IMG/VR virus record: IMGVR_UViG_3300044620_001243
Strand: one strand, 5' to 3'
Source: a virus
Length of the DNA: 64,000 nucleotides
The notes below the pieces were generated by a model, which worked only from the letters and a program-made list of their open reading frames with translations, searched no databases and was not told the origin of the DNA. Position numbers and translations under genes: made by a program. Below are positions 41,587-63,028 of this stretch, piece by piece (position 1 is the first letter of the stretch; each line of letters starts with the position of its first letter).

Positions 41587-41725
41587 AGTCAGATGGCGAA
41601 ATGTAGCCGCTATTTGGGTAAAACAGTTTAACACGAGACGCGAACCTCACACAAAGCCTGATAATAACCAAATGAAAGTGCGAAGTACAGTAACACTTAT
41701 ACGGGTTCGACTCCCGTTCTGACTG
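41587..41725 (+). ncRNA. tRNA-Leu-like shell RNA 1 (divergent copy)
   Basis: AGTCAGA-TG-GCGAAATGTAGCCGC ... ACGGG-TTCGACT-CCCGT-TCTGACT-G; 90-nt insert with ATTTGG/CCAAAT stem around 51 nt, plus AAGTG/CACTT arm. Confidence 0.55.
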
Positions 41726-41911: not shown

Positions 41912-42018
41912 TACAAATAATTTCAGTTTTATTGATTTACGTTCTTATCTACTTAATAGTTTCCGCTTGGATTAAGTTCTCAAATGAAAACACAATTAAA
42001 AACCTTTACAAAAAATAA
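41908..42018 (+). CDS. hypothetical small membrane protein
   Basis: 36-codon ORF MIQIISVLLIYVLIYLIVSAW..., ATGA overlap. Confidence 0.25.
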   Translation: MIQIISVLLIYVLIYLIVSAWIKFSNENTIKNLYKK

Positions 42019-42022
42019 AAAT

Positions 42023-42184
42023 ATGAAACAAAACAGTCACCTAATTCTTGCAATTAGTTTATTTTTACTTGGAATTTTAATTCAATGTGTATTACCACAG
42101 TTTACCGTTTTAGCGCATTTATCCTGTTTTATTTCGGGATGGTTTTTTGGTAACTATTTTTTCAATAAACAATATTCAGAATAA
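42023..42184 (+). CDS. small membrane protein
   Basis: 53 aa from ATG 42023 within track ORF 41984; two hydrophobic segments. Confidence 0.35.
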   Translation: MKQNSHLILAISLFLLGILIQCVLPQFTVLAHLSCFISGWFFGNYFFNKQYSE

Positions 42185-42194
42185 ATTTAACAAC

Positions 42195-42271
42195 AGGGAT
42201 GTATCCCCTCATGCTTATACCATGTAGAAAGGGTAATTGGTGACATATGAGTTCGAGTCTCATCTTCCCTA
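42195..42271 (+). ncRNA. atypical tRNA-like element lacking a D arm (candidate UAU anticodon loop)
   Basis: Acceptor AGGGATG/CTTCCCT (6 of 7 bp), T arm ATGAG-TTCGAGT-CTCAT, hairpin CATG-CTTATAC-CATG at positions 16-30, no foldable D arm; 77 nt. Confidence 0.4.
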
Positions 42272-42300: not shown

Positions 42301-42711
42301 ATGAAAAAACTGTTCACATTTTTATTCTTAATGATTATTTCCATTGTTTCATATGGTCAAAAACCAATGGTTGGTTTTACGGAAGACGATATTAAAACAT
42401 ATAATAGAATTCAAAATGAAACGTTTTTTTGGGATAAAATTTATGAATCAAATATATGGTGTCTTTGGACAAAACACCAAACTCTTGATTTAATGAGCTT
42501 TTATGTTTTTGAATATGGTAAAAATAAAAACACCATGTTTGTAAACGCCACAAAAGATGATGAACTTGCTTTAATTATTTTAGATAAAATAAGAGAAGAT
42601 TGTGTTTTTTTAGGTAATGATAGGTACTTTAACAAAGACAATGGTTTGACAGTAAAATGTGAGTACAACCAAAGTGAGAAATCATTCATGTTTAAGTGGT
42701 GTTTTGAATAG
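42301..42711 (+). CDS. secreted protein (signal peptide)
   Basis: MKKLFTFLFLMIISIVSYG N-terminal signal-like sequence. Confidence 0.5.
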   Translation: MKKLFTFLFLMIISIVSYGQKPMVGFTEDDIKTYNRIQNETFFWDKIYESNIWCLWTKHQTLDLMSFYVFEYGKNKNTMFVNATKDDELALIILDKIREDCVFLGNDRYFNKDNGLTVKCEYNQSEKSFMFKWCFE

Positions 42712-42727
42712 TTTAAAAAAACATAAC

Positions 42728-43375
42728 ATGATTAATAATATTGAACTTATTAAACCCCTATTGAATTATGAAGAACACGGGGATTTTTACATGCTCTATG
42801 TTTTTAAAAGAAAAAAAGACCAACCCGAAGGAGAAAAAGATAACCATCAATCTGTTAGGACAATAAAAACATATTGTGTAGAAAGTATTGAATACTTAGA
42901 AAAAAGATTTGATGAGATAAAAGAATTGTGTGAATATTTTAAAGCGAGAGCATACATCCATGTTCAAAAACAAAACCATAAGGATGTCTCATTAGATATG
43001 ATGATTAGTTTGGCGGAAAAAATTAAAAATGGGCAACTGAATCAAAAGAATCTATTTGATTCGGTTGTTGGTCAAATAAAAACACACGAGAAAAGATGGG
43101 TCATTGACATTGATGGGTCTGAAACCCCATCTCCATTAATGATGGCAAATATTGAATATCATTGTAAACCAATAACCACACTTAAATATGATAAATCGGG
43201 GGTGATGAACGGTTATACTTCTGGCCCAAAAATTGAGGCCATTATCCCAACAAAAAACGGTCACCATATCATCACGAAAAAATTTGATGTGATGGAGTTT
43301 AAAAAATATTATCCCGATGTCGATATTCAAAAAAAGAATCCAACATTATTATATTATCCAAAAAGTTTAGGATAA
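42728..43375 (+). CDS. hypothetical protein
   Basis: 215 aa from ATG 42728 (track ORF 42659 overlaps upstream gene). Confidence 0.5.
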   Translation: MINNIELIKPLLNYEEHGDFYMLYVFKRKKDQPEGEKDNHQSVRTIKTYCVESIEYLEKRFDEIKELCEYFKARAYIHVQKQNHKDVSLDMMISLAEKIKNGQLNQKNLFDSVVGQIKTHEKRWVIDIDGSETPSPLMMANIEYHCKPITTLKYDKSGVMNGYTSGPKIEAIIPTKNGHHIITKKFDVMEFKKYYPDVDIQKKNPTLLYYPKSLG

Positions 43376-44653: not shown

Positions 44654-44727
44654 AGCGGGGTGGTGGCAGATGGTAGCCCGCCAGGCTCATAACCTGGAGG
44701 TCGTAGGTTCGAGTCCTACCCCCGCAA
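44654..44727 (+). tRNA. tRNA-Met (CAU), initiator-like
   Basis: Hand-folded cloverleaf colinear with E. coli tRNA-fMet (AGCGGGG..CCAGG-CTCATAA-CCTGG-AGGTC-GTAGG-TTCGAGT-CCTAC-CCCCGCA-A); A1/A72 mismatch; one bulged U in the D stem; starts about 25 nt after the -7 box at 44621-44628. Confidence 0.75.
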
Positions 44728-44791
44728 CCGTATAGTTTTTGTTCTTTGACATCTTGGGAATTAAAAGTAAAAGTCGAGAGACTTAAAAATT

Positions 44792-44901
44792 AGTCAGGTG
44801 GCGGAATTGGTAGACGCAAGTGAGAATAGTAATTGCGCTGATGTAGCGGCAGATGCAGTAAGTTATTATTCATACAGGTTCGAGTCCTGTCCTGACTACC
44901 A
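44792..44901 (+). ncRNA. tRNA-Leu-like shell RNA 2
   Basis: Consensus ends (AGTCAGGTGGCGGAATTGGTAGACGC ... ACAGGTTCGAGTCCTGTCCTGACTACCA); 56-nt insert forms a rod GAATAGTAA/TTATTATTC + TTGC/GCAG + GCTG/CGGC; no 5-7-5 anticodon arm. Confidence 0.6.
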
Positions 44902-45008
44902 AAGAAACAAGTAAAACGCAAACGCACAGTCCCTTGATGCATCAGGTGAGGCGCACACTGTATACTGGATGACCTCTGTTTCTTTTTTAATCAGTCAGGT
45001 GGCGGAAT
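44871..45008 (+). repeat. 138-bp exact duplication, copy 1 (T arm + acceptor + spacer + next 5' half)
   Basis: Identical by eye to 45339-45476. Confidence 0.8.
44902..44992 (+). ncRNA. structured 91-nt spacer RNA candidate (copy 1 of 2)
   Basis: AAAGAAACA (from 44901, sharing the terminal A of the preceding CCA)/TGTTTCTTT 9-bp closing stem, internal ACAGT/ACTGT and GAGG/CCTC pairings, palindrome TGATGCATCA; identical copy at 45370-45460. Confidence 0.3.
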
Positions 45009-45101
45009 TGGATAGACGCATTGAGGAATCTAAACTTGGTAGCATTTGTTAGATTTAATAGTAATCCTCCTTCCTTACAGGTTCGACTCCTGTCCTGACT
45101 A
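44993..45101 (+). ncRNA. tRNA-Leu-like shell RNA 3
   Basis: Consensus ends; 57-nt insert with GAGGA/TCCTC and ATCTAA/TTAGAT stems. Confidence 0.6.
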
Positions 45102-45267: not shown

Positions 45268-45369
45268 AGTCAGGTGACGAAATTGGTAGACGTGCCACGA
45301 ATAAAACTAAGTGGTGGAGAAACAGCTTTCAGGCACTCCATACAGGTTCGAGTCCTGTCCTGACTACCA
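45268..45369 (+). ncRNA. tRNA-Leu-like shell RNA 4
   Basis: Ends AGTCAGGTGACGAAATTGGTAGACGT ... CCTGACTACCA; 48-nt insert with CCAC/GTGG and GGAG/CTCC hairpins. Confidence 0.6.
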
Positions 45370-45476
45370 AAGAAACAAGTAAAACGCAAACGCACAGTCC
45401 CTTGATGCATCAGGTGAGGCGCACACTGTATACTGGATGACCTCTGTTTCTTTTTTAATCAGTCAGGTGGCGGAAT
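45339..45476 (+). repeat. 138-bp exact duplication, copy 2
   Basis: Identical by eye to 44871-45008; offset 468 bp. Confidence 0.8.
45370..45460 (+). ncRNA. structured 91-nt spacer RNA candidate (copy 2 of 2)
   Basis: Identical to 44902-44992. Confidence 0.3.
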
Positions 45477-45558
45477 GGTAGACGCACTGGACAGGCGATG
45501 CATTTAAAACAGAAATAAGCCCAGTCGGTACTTACAGGTTCGAATCCTGTCCTGACTA
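45461..45558 (+). ncRNA. tRNA-Leu-like shell RNA 5
   Basis: Consensus ends; 48-nt insert with ACTGG/CCAGT + GGC/GCC around a 22-nt loop. Confidence 0.6.
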
Positions 45559-45926
45559 CAAATCTTAGGAGTAATTAACCTAAGACTGAGAGGTTCGAAA
45601 CTCTCGATTGGCTATGGTGTAATGGGCACAGAGAAACGGAGTACGAAAGGGGTTACGGGAATTTTCCCGCAAACATCAGAAACGGGACTCAGGATTATGG
45701 TTCGAATCCATATTAGTCAACAAGCCGTCTTTTTTTCTTGTCCGCCGTGGACGTGGATTGTTGAGACGTAAAAGTAACAATCGATTGATTAGAGAACGGT
45801 AGGATACAGGTTCACTAGACGAAGGTAGAAGTTTTTTTTTGATAGATGGGTTTGAGTTCTTTATAACAACAAACCAACTATAATTCAGTAGGGACAAATG
45901 GGAGCGGCTTACTCCAGTCCCGAAAT

Positions 45927-46085
45927 AGTCAGGTGGCGGAATTGGTAGACGCTATGAAATCATGTTTTAAGATTGAACGGGTAGGCAGACGTAACATATA
46001 GGTAAAAGAGTGTTATCGCCGAATACACTTATAAGGGTCCTATGAAAAAACTTCAATCATACAGGTTCAAGTCCTGTCCTGACTA
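45927..46085 (+). ncRNA. tRNA-Leu-like shell RNA 6 (largest insert)
   Basis: Consensus ends (T loop TTCAAGT); 108-nt insert with GATTGAA/TTCAATC closing stem and nested helices. Confidence 0.55.
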
Positions 46086-46328: not shown

Positions 46329-46451
46329 AGTCAGGTGTGGGTAAAAATGCGCTAACTGGAAACCCACTGAAAGCGAAAGCAAAGTCGAGGTCTAAATGCG
46401 CACTATGGCCGAGGTAATGGCGAGATACAGGTTCAAGTCCTGTCCTGACTA
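46329..46451 (+). ncRNA. tRNA-Leu-like shell RNA 7 (D arm replaced)
   Basis: AGTCAGG-TG, then GTGGGT/ACCCAC hairpin instead of the D arm, GC-GAAA-GC hairpin, consensus T arm and CCTGACT-A. Confidence 0.5.
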
Positions 46452-46668: not shown

Positions 46669-46843
46669 CCTTGGAGGTATAGGGGTAAACCCTTGAGGCG
46701 AAGTACAAGCCATAGTCACTGAACTTAAACTGACCTCCAACCAAATTAGAAGTGTCGCAATACGCGTTTCAATCTAATTGATAGACGTATCAATGAAGAT
46801 GTTCGAGGGTGAAAATCCCAAGCTTCTAATCCTCCATTCTTAG

Positions 46844-46938
46844 TGTTATGTGGTTAAAACACGTTAACTCTTACATCGCCTGATTAGCGCTAATCCGAAT
46901 GTAAGACGAGTAAGTTGGTTCGAATCCAACAGAATGGA
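46844..46938 (+). ncRNA. tRNA-like RNA of a second lineage with rod-like anticodon arm
   Basis: Acceptor CCATTCT/AGAATGG (7 bp), D arm GTGT-TATGTGGTTAAA-ACAC, T arm GTTGG-TTCGAAT-CCAAC, A73; 50-nt rod TTACAT/ATGTAA + palindrome GATTAGCGCTAATC. Confidence 0.55.
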
Positions 46939-47216: not shown

Positions 47217-47319
47217 AGTCAGGTGGCGGAGTGGGCTAACGCTAACTTGGAAGAGTCTGAGGAGTGGTAACCAAGTACCTATACTCTGATGACCGCAGGT
47301 TCGAATCCTGTCCTGACTA
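47217..47319 (+). ncRNA. tRNA-Leu-like shell RNA 8
   Basis: AGTCAGG-TG-GCGGAGTGGGCTAACGC ... GCAGG-TTCGAAT-CCTGT-CCTGACT-A; 52-nt insert with ACTTGG/CCAAGT stem; loop AGAGT complementary to downstream ACTCT. Confidence 0.6.
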
Positions 47320-47605: not shown

Positions 47606-47751
47606 AGTCAGGTGGCGGAATTGGTTAGACGCTGTAAAAGTAAGATATGGGAATTGTGCACTCGGTAAACCTACGCACAAGGCTTAGATAGTTGTGCAAC
47701 AGCGGAAAGTCTTACAAAACTATCTTACAGGTTCGAATCCTGTCCTGACTG
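47606..47751 (+). ncRNA. tRNA-Leu-like shell RNA 9
   Basis: Consensus ends (G73); 94-nt insert with AAGATA/TATCTT and TTGTGC/GCACAA stems. Confidence 0.55.
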
Positions 47752-47764
47752 CAAAATTAAAGAT

Positions 47765-47908
47765 ATGTTTAGAACATTAAATTATATTTGGAAATTGTTT
47801 TGGAAAAGACCTAGTAGAAGAGTATTTTTTATATTTTTTAGAATGCTAAAAACGGAAATTAAGTGTTTAATGTTGACTGGATACTCAACAGATGAATTAC
47901 TAAATTAG
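47765..47908 (+). CDS. hypothetical small protein (cassette between tRNA-like elements)
   Basis: 47-codon ORF found by eye; its TAG stop overlaps the first 2 nt of element 47907. Confidence 0.3.
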   Translation: MFRTLNYIWKLFWKRPSRRVFFIFFRMLKTEIKCLMLTGYSTDELLN

Positions 47909-48033
47909 TCAGGTGGCGGAATTGGTAGACGCACGATTTATTGTTTAACGATGTGGCTCAATGTCCTAATGGATGAGAGAAAATAAACAGAGAAATATAC
48001 CACATACAGGTTCGAATCCTGTCCTGACTACCA
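47907..48033 (+). ncRNA. tRNA-Leu-like shell RNA 10
   Basis: Consensus ends with encoded CCA; 73-nt insert with crossing complementarities TTTATT/AATAAA and ATGTGG/CCACAT. Confidence 0.6.
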
Positions 48034-48085: not shown

Positions 48086-48170
48086 AGTCAGGTGGCGGAA
48101 TGGATAGACGCGGCCCTATCAGGGGTAGAGGCGAAAGAAACTCATACAGGTTCGAATCCTGTCCTGACTA
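48086..48170 (+). ncRNA. tRNA-Leu-like shell RNA 11 (tRNA-sized, non-canonical anticodon loop)
   Basis: 85 nt; best arm CCCTA-TCAGGGG-TAGAG has a C/A mismatch and C at position 33; looks like a damaged Leu(CAG) loop. Confidence 0.5.
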
Positions 48171-49001: not shown

Positions 49002-50435
49002 ATGTGTGAATTTTTACCAAAAAGAATGGGTTATAAGTTAGAATTACTTAAAAGTGCGTTAAGTATTGATGGGGTTGAATCAATAGATAATGTGATAAAT
49101 TGGATTTTACTTCAAAATAAATCAACACATATTTCTGTAAATCGTGTTGATTTAATGTCACTTAAAAATTGGTTTTTTTCAAATGACATTCAAAACATAT
49201 ATCATAAAACTGGTAAATTTTTTTCTATTGATGGAATAACAGTTAAAACTAATTGGGGAACTATTAATGAATGGGACCAACCCATTATTAACCAACCTGA
49301 AATAGGGTTTTTAGGGTTTATCACACAAGAAATAAATGGGGTTTTACATTTCTTATTACAAGCTAAGATTGAACCAGGAAACGTAAATTATGTGCAATTA
49401 TCCCCAACTTTACAAGCCACACGTAGTAATTACACTCAAATTCATAGAGGAAATAAACCTTTTTTTCTTGAATATTTTTTAAATGTTAAATCAGAAAACA
49501 TTCTTTTTGACCAGTTACAATCTGAACAAGGTGCTCGTTTTTTGCGAAAACGAAACAGAAACATTATTATTAAAGTTGACGAACCAATAAAGCCACCTTC
49601 TAATTTTATGTGGTTAACTTTAGGTCAACTCAAACTATTAATGAAGATGTCTAATATCGTAAATATGGATACAAGAACAGTAATTTCTGGTATTTTATTT
49701 GACGGTCTTTCTCAATTTAATTATGAACAAATCATGAATGAAAAAGGAATAGTTCCTTCTGATTTGGGTGTTTCATTTTTTAAATCTGCAATTCTTAATG
49801 AAGGGTCTCTTCATAGTATTGAAGAGATAATTACATTTTTAACTAAACACAAAAGTTTTTTTGAAATTTTTATTGAACGAATACCACTTACTCATTTACG
49901 TAAATGGGAAGTCAAATCAGACGAGATTGTACGTCCTGATAATAAATATTTTAAAATTATTGGTGTAAATGTTGAAATTGATAATCGAGAAGTATCTAAT
50001 TGGGACCAACCGATGTTAATGCCATTGCAAGAAGGTATTTGTGCCATGATTGTTAAAAACATAAATGGTGTAATGCATTTTTTAATGTTAGCAAAATTAG
50101 AGTGTGGTAATCATGATATTATTGAATTTGCACCAACTATTCAACACACATCAACTGGCAATGATTTGTCATCTAATTGTCCACCATTTTTAAATTATGT
50201 GCTTGAATCCAATGAAAAACAAATAATTTACGACACTTATCAATCAGAAGAAGGTGGTAGATTTTATCGAGAACAAAATAGGTATCTAATTGTCCTCGCA
50301 GATGAAGATTTTAAAAACGAAGTGCCTGAAAATTATATTTGGATGACATTGTATCAAATTCAAGTTTTTTTAAAATTTAACAATTATATTAATATACAGG
50401 CACGTAGTCTTATCGCGGCTATTTCTTATTTATGA
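49002..50435 (+). CDS. NDP-hexose 2,3-dehydratase
   Basis: 477 aa with two internal repeats of the hexose-dehydratase domain (WDQP...G.L......G...FL.QAK.EPGN; second copy WDQPML...HFLMLAKLECGN; GGRF). Confidence 0.7.
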   Translation: MCEFLPKRMGYKLELLKSALSIDGVESIDNVINWILLQNKSTHISVNRVDLMSLKNWFFSNDIQNIYHKTGKFFSIDGITVKTNWGTINEWDQPIINQPEIGFLGFITQEINGVLHFLLQAKIEPGNVNYVQLSPTLQATRSNYTQIHRGNKPFFLEYFLNVKSENILFDQLQSEQGARFLRKRNRNIIIKVDEPIKPPSNFMWLTLGQLKLLMKMSNIVNMDTRTVISGILFDGLSQFNYEQIMNEKGIVPSDLGVSFFKSAILNEGSLHSIEEIITFLTKHKSFFEIFIERIPLTHLRKWEVKSDEIVRPDNKYFKIIGVNVEIDNREVSNWDQPMLMPLQEGICAMIVKNINGVMHFLMLAKLECGNHDIIEFAPTIQHTSTGNDLSSNCPPFLNYVLESNEKQIIYDTYQSEEGGRFYREQNRYLIVLADEDFKNEVPENYIWMTLYQIQVFLKFNNYINIQARSLIAAISYL

Positions 50436-61411: not shown

Positions 61412-61501
61412 AGTCAGGTGGTGGAATTGGTTAGACCGTCCCCTCCCTTAAGTGGAAGGGGGAGACCGAAAGGTATACAGGTTCGAATCCTGTCCTGACT
61501 A
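61412..61501 (+). tRNA. tRNA-Leu (UAA), type II; the most intact member of the AGTCAGG shell family
   Basis: Family acceptor and T arms; anticodon arm CCTCC-CTTAAGT-GGAAG (one C/A mismatch; U33, UAA, G37); variable arm ACC-GAAA-GGT. Confidence 0.5.
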
Positions 61502-61685: not shown

Positions 61686-61768
61686 AGTCAGGTGGCGAAA
61701 TTGGATAGACGCTAGGGAAACCTTCCCGAGAATGAAAGTTCATATAGGTTCGAGTCCTGTCCTGACAA
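61686..61768 (+). ncRNA. tRNA-Leu-like shell RNA 13 (tRNA-sized)
   Basis: 83 nt; A1/A72 mismatch (CCTGACA); centre folds as GGGAA-ACC-TTCCC, not a 7-nt anticodon loop. Confidence 0.5.
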
Positions 61769-61973: not shown

Positions 61974-62096
61974 AGTCAGGTGGCGGAATTGGTAGACGTA
62001 TAGAGTAGGGAGTAGCACTCCATTTATGGTAAGGCAAGCAAATAAGACCTAACCCTCTAAGGTAGCACCATACAGGTTCGAATCCTGTCCTGACTA
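61974..62096 (+). ncRNA. tRNA-Leu-like shell RNA 14
   Basis: Consensus ends; 72-nt insert with TAGAG/CTCTA closing stem and GGAG-TAGCA-CTCC hairpin. Confidence 0.6.
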
Positions 62097-62328: not shown

Positions 62329-62435
62329 AGTCAGGTGGCGGAATTGGTAGACGCAATAAGGCATGGAAACATGCGCATCATGACGGATTGGTGATATTAG
62401 CCAAAGTTATACAGGTTCGAATCCTGTCCTGACTA
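62329..62435 (+). ncRNA. tRNA-Leu-like shell RNA 15
   Basis: Consensus ends; 56-nt insert with ATAA/TTAT closing stem, GCATG-GAAA-CATGC (GNRA tetraloop) and TTGG/CCAA hairpins. Confidence 0.6.
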
Positions 62436-62950: not shown

Positions 62951-63028
62951 AGTCAGGTGGCGGAATGGTAACGCAGCTCGCGGTGTACACAAAGGGGTGA
63001 ATTGCAGGTTCGAATCCTGTCCTGACTA
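62951..63028 (+). ncRNA. tRNA-Leu-like shell RNA 16 (shortest)
   Basis: 78 nt; 29-nt centre tested at every register for a 5-7-5 arm, none found. Confidence 0.5.

Follow-up and report, generated by a model that had tools for sequence, protein, structure and literature searches.

The question raised by this locus is whether a tRNA-like RNA that cannot form a D hairpin may still serve translation. The element concerned is 77 nt long and lies at positions 42195–42271 (+ strand) of a 64,000-nt stretch of viral DNA (IMG/VR record IMGVR_UViG_3300044620_001243; the whole of this stretch is termed the window), and an initial annotation, made from the letters alone, had offered three readings for it: an armless, mitochondrial-style tRNA, a rearranged pseudogene or another punctuation element. 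Comparison with more than 230 homologues from phage contigs points elsewhere, in that the element is most probably a functional phage tRNA-Ile(UAU), a decoder of AUA, of a structural class in which a segment of the D arm has been transposed. The evidence consists of four helices with compensatory changes, a covarying pair of the 15-48 type, a D-loop motif, a restricted set of anticodons, and the presence of the genes in tRNA arrays, where they stand in for canonical tRNA-Ile(GAU).

A tRNA-like element missed by standard finders

The element, which does not encode CCA, is on the coding strand between the open reading frames (ORFs) 41984–42184 and 42301–42711, and the distances first reported, 10 nt from the stop codon of the former and 29 nt to the ATG of the latter (42301), are confirmed. 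In several respects it is built like a canonical tRNA: the acceptor spans 7 bp, the T stem has 5 bp and closes a T-psi-C loop, and the anticodon loop is of 7 nt and contains U33. The acceptor strands AGGGATG (42195–42201, positions 1–7) and CTTCCCT (42264–42270) pair at six of seven positions, the exception being a U·U at 6:67, and are followed by a discriminator A73 (42271; A in 132 of 136 members), and the T arm (42247–42263) reads ATGAG-TTCGAGT-CTCAT; acceptor and T arm are as previously described. The initial annotation was also right that no D arm can form at positions 10–25: the interval between A9 and the anticodon stem is of only 6 nt (TCCCCT), where a D hairpin is impossible, and a hairpin CATG-CTTATAC-CATG (42210–42224) comes early, stacked inside a helix of CCC (42205–42207) with GGG (42231–42233). 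The full anticodon arm (42209–42225) has a U·U at 27:43 in addition to the four Watson–Crick pairs, and its loop, with the anticodon TAT (UAU; 42216–42218) between C32 U33 and A37 C38, still reads as an anticodon loop for the Ile codon AUA. A 13-nt single strand, TAATTGGTGACAT (42234–42246; family consensus T-A-R-Y-T-G-G-T-Y-R-C-A-Y), precedes the T arm.

Standard tools did not recover the element. ARAGORN called six tRNAs in the window, none of them here; the Rfam tRNA model RF00005 gave no match to the element at its gathering threshold (29 bits), nor when 301 nt were searched with a cut-off of E≤10; and the other Rfam families, the tRNA-like domain of tmRNA included, gave chance-level matches only (E≥1.1, unrelated families). 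Neither ARAGORN nor the tRNA model, then, put a conventional cloverleaf in the place of the fold first drawn. Folded singly, the element does no better than its shuffled versions (z=0.29), and the case for function must therefore rest on comparison. Absence from the output of tRNA finders, an insignificant single-sequence fold and the acceptor U·U mismatch are also what could be expected of a decayed or rearranged tRNA pseudogene without function.

The comparison with related phages that had been proposed gave a divided answer, as the nearest relatives at the protein level lack a homologue whereas more than 230 are found in other phage contigs. A blastn search of the 3.5-kb neighbourhood against GenBank phages returned no match, and the exact T arm plus acceptor of this copy had 0 matches in IMG/VR. 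No homologue was present in 80 loci reached through a neighbouring 238-aa protein, and the closest relatives by the neighbouring 238-aa and 136-aa proteins held neither a homologue nor tRNAs within ~6 kb. A custom scan of the window for acceptor stem plus T arm returned other tRNA-like elements with a common acceptor and T arm, and a 25-mer of those elements fetched phage contigs, among which two (L166 and L126) carry clear homologues of the target. In this three-sequence comparison compensatory changes are already present in all four helices: the acceptor is wholly different yet paired, CCC/GGG becomes CUC/GAG, CAUG/CAUG becomes CAAG/CUUG, and the T stem is altered. Scanning with CTTATACNNNGTAGAAAG yielded at least 104 full elements (at least 66 distinct), and the overall tally is 235 elements in 224 loci, from marine, freshwater, soil and gut phages.

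Under a covariance model built for the family (R1), the element reaches 93.1 bits (E=3e-24; the window sequence was in the training alignment), untrained members 76–103 bits, divergent members 38–59 bits and canonical tRNAs no more than 31 bits. The divergent members keep the topology with linkers TTA, ATAA or CATTAACAA, and the length of the stack, parsed by hand in two of them, is approximately unchanged.

Covariation was scored in two alignments. A1 comprises 70 sequences, for which the only selection criteria were the pattern in loop and linker and a loose requirement for T and acceptor pairing; 98.0% of its cells are paired, two-sided changes occur in 17 of 20 pairs, and the covariation score is 0.664 versus 0.20 in shuffles (0 of 500 shuffles reach it), with slid controls paired at 37–47%. 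Two-sided changes affect all seven acceptor pairs (98% of cells paired) and four of the five T-stem pairs, and the CCC/GGG helix, although not a selection criterion for A1, is 99.5% paired. A2 (120 sequences) is more diverse and was filtered on helix pairing, and its weight lies on the covariation counts rather than on its 97.7% of paired cells; its score is 0.917 versus 0.22 in shuffles. RNAalifold, run independently, recovered the same 19 pairs, and in a mutual information (MI) scan of the 136 distinct 77-nt members the top 13 column pairs all belong to the model. Numbered along the element, the D-stem-equivalent pairs 11:39 and 12:38 covary (C-G, U-A, A-U, G-C), and the anticodon-stem pairs 17:29, 18:28 and 19:27 show strong covariation and are among the top MI pairs. 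Moreover, the pair 42:52, which is A42-T52 in the element itself, covaries between A-U and G-C (60/9 in A1 and 79/25 in A2; MI 0.67). A hairpin inside the 13-nt strand (for example 44:49) was considered and rejected, as only 42:52 covaries there.

More than 230 homologues with compensatory changes in every helix and an invariant core amount in practice to a refutation, by covariation, of the pseudogene proposed in the initial annotation, which retains almost no probability; the U·U at 6:67 itself recurs in 15 of the 136 distinct members.

Proposed transposition of the D-arm segment

The homologues suggest a definite order of parts along the chain. The 5′ acceptor strand is followed by TA (42202–42203; U8 and A9), which is the same in all 136 distinct 77-nt members. 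TCCC (42204–42207; element positions 10–13) would then take the place of the D-stem 3′ strand 22–25, its CCC pairing with GGG by covariation and RNAalifold, and would lead through an invariant C (42208; element position 14, putatively equivalent to 26) into the anticodon stem. The anticodon arm is followed by a linker AGAAA (42226–42230) that is conserved in the main subfamily, an invariance that for linker and loop alike is partly forced by the search patterns. GGGT (42231–42234; element positions 37–40), with A14 next to it, would correspond to the D-stem 5′ strand 10–13; it covaries with 42204–42207, and its invariant pair G37:C13 matches the G10:C25 conserved in canonical tRNAs. The D-loop equivalent AATTGGTGA (42235–42243) may be read as A14 R15 Y16 U17 G18 G19 U20 N A21, with A41, G45 and G46 of the element invariant or nearly so, and is followed by C A T (42244–42246), a putative two-base spacer plus Y48 equivalent in which position 52 covaries with position 42 (R15). 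The chain ends with the T arm, whose positions T58, T59, C60 and A62 do not vary in A1, and then with the 3′ half of the acceptor. Segment 10–21 would thereby have moved from before 22–25 to a place beyond the anticodon arm.

The likeness of the 13-nt strand to a D loop, which the initial annotation had remarked on, is borne out in detail. Canonical tRNA-Ile genes of phages in the same locus collection have its core, AATTGGTTA, as their D loop, the R42-Y52 covariation has the pattern of the R15-Y48 Levitt pair, and arginine members read AATTGGATA, which is the D loop of canonical phage tRNA-Arg. The stack consists of four Watson–Crick pairs, U·U, C·A, three Watson–Crick pairs and U·U, that is, the 10 layers of a canonical anticodon/D stack. 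With this stack, and with U8, A14, R15-Y48, G18G19, T54, Psi55, C56 and A58 apparently in place (the corresponding putative tertiary-core nucleotides T8, A41, G45, G46, T58 and A62 vary little or not at all in the family), the usual L-shape is therefore expected.

Two other accounts of the segment order were rejected. Excision of 10–36 as an intron leaves no anticodon arm, and circular permutation fails on the three breakpoints, with no rotation restoring the canonical order. A three-breakpoint transposition that rotation cannot reverse means, therefore, that the mature RNA itself must be non-canonical.

With canonical tRNA-Ile (RF00005) the element has in common the lengths of the acceptor (7 bp), T stem (5 bp) and anticodon loop (7 nt), the bases U8, U33, A37 and A73, the TTCRANY sequence of the T loop, the D-loop sequence AAUUGGUUA, the R15-Y48-type pair and the 10-layer anticodon/D stack; unlike it, the element has no D hairpin, carries segment 10–21 on the 3′ side of the anticodon arm and forms a three-way instead of a four-way junction. 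In Mycoplasma mobile and a few other bacteria AUA is read by a tRNA-Ile(UAU), not by lysidine-CAU, and these tRNAs are cell-encoded canonical cloverleaves; the anticodon use is the same here, but the gene is phage-borne and the core rewired. In Cyanidioschyzon merolae, permuted tRNA genes give rise through processing to canonical mature tRNAs. These circularly permuted genes, whose segment order is likewise non-canonical (PMC3728597), differ from the three-breakpoint transposition described here, in which the mature RNA must be non-canonical.

D-armless mitochondrial tRNAs also lack a D hairpin between acceptor and anticodon arm and also form a three-way junction, and they function in translation, as is expected of the phage element. 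They have a short 5′-side connector in place of the D arm, have lost the G18G19/T-loop contacts and are flexible (PMC7609411), whereas the phage family keeps, on the 3′ side, a covarying D-stem equivalent and the full D-loop motif, and occurs in phage genomes with otherwise canonical tRNA sets. The armless, mitochondrial-style tRNA first suggested is thus not the appropriate model, as the D-stem equivalent (CCC/GGG) and the G18G19 motif are retained in a different order. A further comparison is with the allo-tRNAs and the (8/4) and (9/3) tRNAs of bacteria and phages, with an altered acceptor/T split, among which the allo-tRNAs have long variable arms, a tRNA-Sec-like D arm and UAU as a predominant anticodon (Mukai et al. 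2017, PMC5389517). They too are non-canonical, come from metagenome mining and are in part located in phage tRNA clusters; in the present family, however, the 7/5 split is retained and the D arm is rewired instead.

Anticodons, identity elements and gene context

The anticodon spectrum was determined by pattern scans excluding UAU and by a tally over 150 distinct sequences, which comprise UAU (67), GAU (54), CAU (18), ACG (8) and one each of UCG, UCU and CCU. A strict 20-base pattern with only G or U at position 35 had no match in IMG/VR and one chance match in the metagenome collection. By these scans, therefore, the scaffold serves only Ile, CAU (Met or Ile2) and Arg, and Ile, Met and Arg are all clients of class Ia synthetases.

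Identity elements were found to track the anticodon. An A directly after GG (A20) is present in 11 of 11 arginine members and in 0 of 109 others (A2), and G73 is confined to members with arginine anticodons, all Ile-type members having A73. Both agree with the published determinants, which are A20, C35 and A/G73 for bacterial ArgRS, and A73, U20/U21, A35, U36, A37 and G34 or lysidine-34 for bacterial IleRS (PMC9976931). By its sequence, the element would offer A73, A35, U36, A37 and U20 to IleRS, with U, not G or lysidine, at position 34; the U12-A23 of many GAU members is G-C in this element.

The family lives among tRNA genes. Of the 235 elements, 213 are in a locus with canonical tRNAs, the nearest of which is at a median distance of 39 nt, and 92 are within 20 nt of one; most members thus stand between other tRNAs and not between ORFs, and ARAGORN calls overlap only two of the 235, both calls being aberrant. 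In L126, for example, canonical-looking tRNA sequences lie 4–5 nt from the element on either side. Furthermore, scaffold genes appear to substitute for the canonical ones. Among arrays with at least 12 canonical tRNAs (loci here are stretches of up to 15 kb, so that absence from an array means absence from the stretch), 4 of the 25 with a scaffold GAU gene also have canonical tRNA-Ile(GAU), as against 26 of the 35 without (Fisher p=1.6e-5), and canonical ACG occurs in 0 of 5 with a scaffold ACG gene as against 26 of 55 without. A scaffold UAU gene and a canonical UAU tRNA share a locus in only 1 of 116 cases.

In the window, AUA accounts for 27% of the codons for Ile and for 23.4 of every 1000 codons overall, a frequency like that of AUG, and ARAGORN finds no canonical tRNA-Ile there. 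A Met(CAT) tRNA at 44654–44729 (+) has an A1·A72 mismatch atop its acceptor (AGCGGGG/CCCCGCA) and is initiator-like. If it is an initiator, a lysidine-type tRNA-Ile2 is missing from the window, which would leave the UAU gene as the sole phage-encoded AUA decoder. RNase P and 3′ nucleases would excise the element from a polycistronic transcript, and the RNA would then gain CCA, be charged with Ile by the host IleRS and decode AUA on the ribosome, a course of processing, charging and decoding to be expected from the sequence.

The first of these steps could also be the whole function, as the initial annotation had in mind with its punctuation element: RNase P and 3′ nucleases would be drawn to the acceptor/T-arm module and cut the mRNA between the flanking ORFs. 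The location is suitable, 10 nt past a stop and 29 nt ahead of a start on the coding strand with no terminator between the two ORFs (promoter and terminator scans around the element gave background levels), and such excision befalls any operon tRNA. For that purpose, however, an acceptor and a T arm suffice, and neither the conserved 7-nt loop with U33 and A37 nor the restriction to Ile, Met and Arg, the Arg-specific A20 or the mutual exclusion with canonical tRNA-Ile(GAU) is explained; moreover, the usual place of a member is between tRNAs. We thus consider a role in punctuation only to be very improbable.

Outside IMG/VR the scaffold was found, by blastn, in ~77 Streptomyces phages in GenBank (for example Jay2Jay, Samisti12 and EGole), in Rhodococcus phage Peregrin, and in the gut-derived crAss-like phage cr130_1 and Bajarodcaudo virus 1. 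The EGole homologue (L320 1495–1571; MK494112.1 75265–75341) has the loop CTGATAA with the in-register anticodon GAU (Ile); it is labelled in GenBank as a tRNA-Leu recognising UUA, and no other GenBank carrier has a feature at this place. Among 185,579 species genomes, a 20-base anticodon-free pattern matched 22 contigs, all from metagenome-assembled genomes (MAGs), and of the 13 of these that were scanned most have other tRNA genes, several in dense phage-like arrays.

This essentially phage-restricted distribution, together with the unusual fold and the many other tRNA-like RNAs in the window that do not decode, would also suit a tRNA mimic, that is, a decoy or anti-defence RNA that, with its acceptor/T-arm shape and Ile-like anticodon loop retained, soaks up or blocks a host tRNA-targeting nuclease or a tRNA-binding defence protein and takes no part in decoding. 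An anti-defence role, as a counter to tRNA-targeting defences, has indeed been proposed for phage tRNAs (PMC10264068). A decoy for an anticodon nuclease, however, has no need of identity elements that follow the anticodon (A20 and G73 for Arg, U20 and A73 for Ile), nor does it account for scaffold genes that take the place of canonical tRNA-Ile(GAU) in arrays instead of adding a second copy, or for the retention of the 10-layer arm length and the full set of tertiary-core nucleotides. A mimic is accordingly regarded as unlikely, if less so than punctuation only, and a decoding tRNA-Ile(UAU) as the preferred reading.

Several points nevertheless weigh against a decoding tRNA, in addition to the single-sequence fold, the pattern-forced invariance and the limited stretch length given above. 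This copy has the U·U at 6:67 and no encoded CCA. A U34 anticodon may misread AUG unless modified, and most bacterial IleRS are adapted to G34 or lysidine-34, not U34. The nearest protein-level relatives (74–78% identity in the 238-aa protein) lack the element in the DNA around that gene, and the element is therefore not syntenically fixed. Finally, the equivalence to a canonical tRNA in three dimensions is presumed from a mapping made on sequence.

In a wider sense, we lean slightly towards regarding the family as an undescribed, essentially phage-restricted class of tRNA in which 10–21 is transposed and the tertiary core kept, which carries only Ile, CAU and Arg anticodons and is invisible to standard finders, so that tRNA repertoires are under-counted; the rewiring may confer resistance or orthogonality to host tRNA nucleases or modification enzymes. 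Full-text literature searches, whose coverage excludes most subscription journals and thus leaves room for a prior description, returned no description of the transposed-D-arm architecture. If confirmed, the class would be a natural case of a tRNA L-shape reached by alternative strand connectivity, with a bearing on tRNA folding, evolution and design and on orthogonal tRNAs. It would also expose a blind spot of annotation: the gene is unannotated or mislabelled as tRNA-Leu in its carriers, and Ile and Arg decoders are consequently missed in studies of codon usage and tRNA repertoire. The questions raised are why only clients of IleRS, MetRS and ArgRS use the fold and whether it protects against tRNA-targeting defences, and the culturable Streptomyces phage carriers make the family experimentally tractable.

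Some contigs of the collection are of interest in their own right. Six in IMG/VR (L212, L352, L374, L390, L417 and L542) have two transposed-D-arm tRNAs each, some of them adjacent, in the combinations UAU+GAU, two GAU, two CAU or ACG+UCG, which shows duplication and anticodon switching within the scaffold. In an Actinomycetota MAG contig of 712,738 bp (CAVZHA010000005.1; L571 3170–3320), which may derive from a phage of very large size or from a chromosome with a prophage, a scaffold UAU gene abuts canonical tRNA-Ile(GAU) without a spacer in a 23-tRNA array. A Saprospiraceae MAG contig (CAKZTD010000033.1; L577 2023–2096) has a 21-tRNA array with a scaffold UAU gene plus a tRNA with the anticodon TTA, a potential TAA suppressor that hints at stop-codon recoding in that phage.

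Other tRNA-like elements and neighbouring genes

A tRNA-Leu-like scaffold (class II) is also present in the window in 14 or more copies, all on the + strand: 41587–41725, 44792–44898, 44993–45101, 45268–45366, 45461–45558, 46329–46451, 47217–47319, 47907–48030, 48086–48170, 61412–61501, 61686–61768, 61974–62096, 62329–62435 and 62951–63028. They are near-identical in acceptor (AGTCAGG/CCTGACT-A), D arm (GGCGGAATTGGTAGACGC) and T arm (ACAGG-TTCGAAT-CCTGT) and hypervariable in the middle, with total lengths of 78–139 nt and ‘anticodon’ hairpins whose 3–30-nt loops are unable to decode. Rfam takes some copies as tRNAs with 30–56-nt inserts, and ARAGORN assigns arbitrary anticodons to three. The 25-mer 3′ end of this scaffold occurs exactly in more than 120 IMG/VR contigs, and the fetched loci hold ~200 copies (54–160 nt), 78% of them without an ARAGORN call. 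These copies could be scaffolded small RNAs, decoys or anticodon-independent substrates of LeuRS.

A further tRNA-like element of 105 nt (46834–46938, +) has a 7/7 acceptor (CCATTCT/AGAATGG), a D arm and a T arm (GTTGG-TTCGAAT-CCAAC), with ~30 extra nt enclosed by a stem (CTTACAT/ATGTAAG) at the site of the anticodon loop, and is called neither by ARAGORN nor by the Rfam tRNA model. Three modules of T arm plus acceptor with irregular 5′ parts are at 45605–45720, 45979–46085 and 47623–47751 (+), the latter two having the CCTGACT 3′ end of the tRNA-Leu-like scaffold, and all three may be truncated or divergent members of it.

Pfam and PHROG scans of the neighbouring ORFs returned no genes of tRNA metabolism. 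The 238-aa protein (42659–43375, +) belongs to phrog_14949 and has no Pfam match; in distant relatives (L027, L071, L073, L076 and L079) it is encoded in or beside large tRNA arrays, and it may be linked to tRNA biology. Directly after the tRNA-like region, at 49002–50435 (+), is a gene for an NDP-hexose 2,3-dehydratase (PF03559, E=8e-145), which suggests sugar or DNA-modification chemistry.

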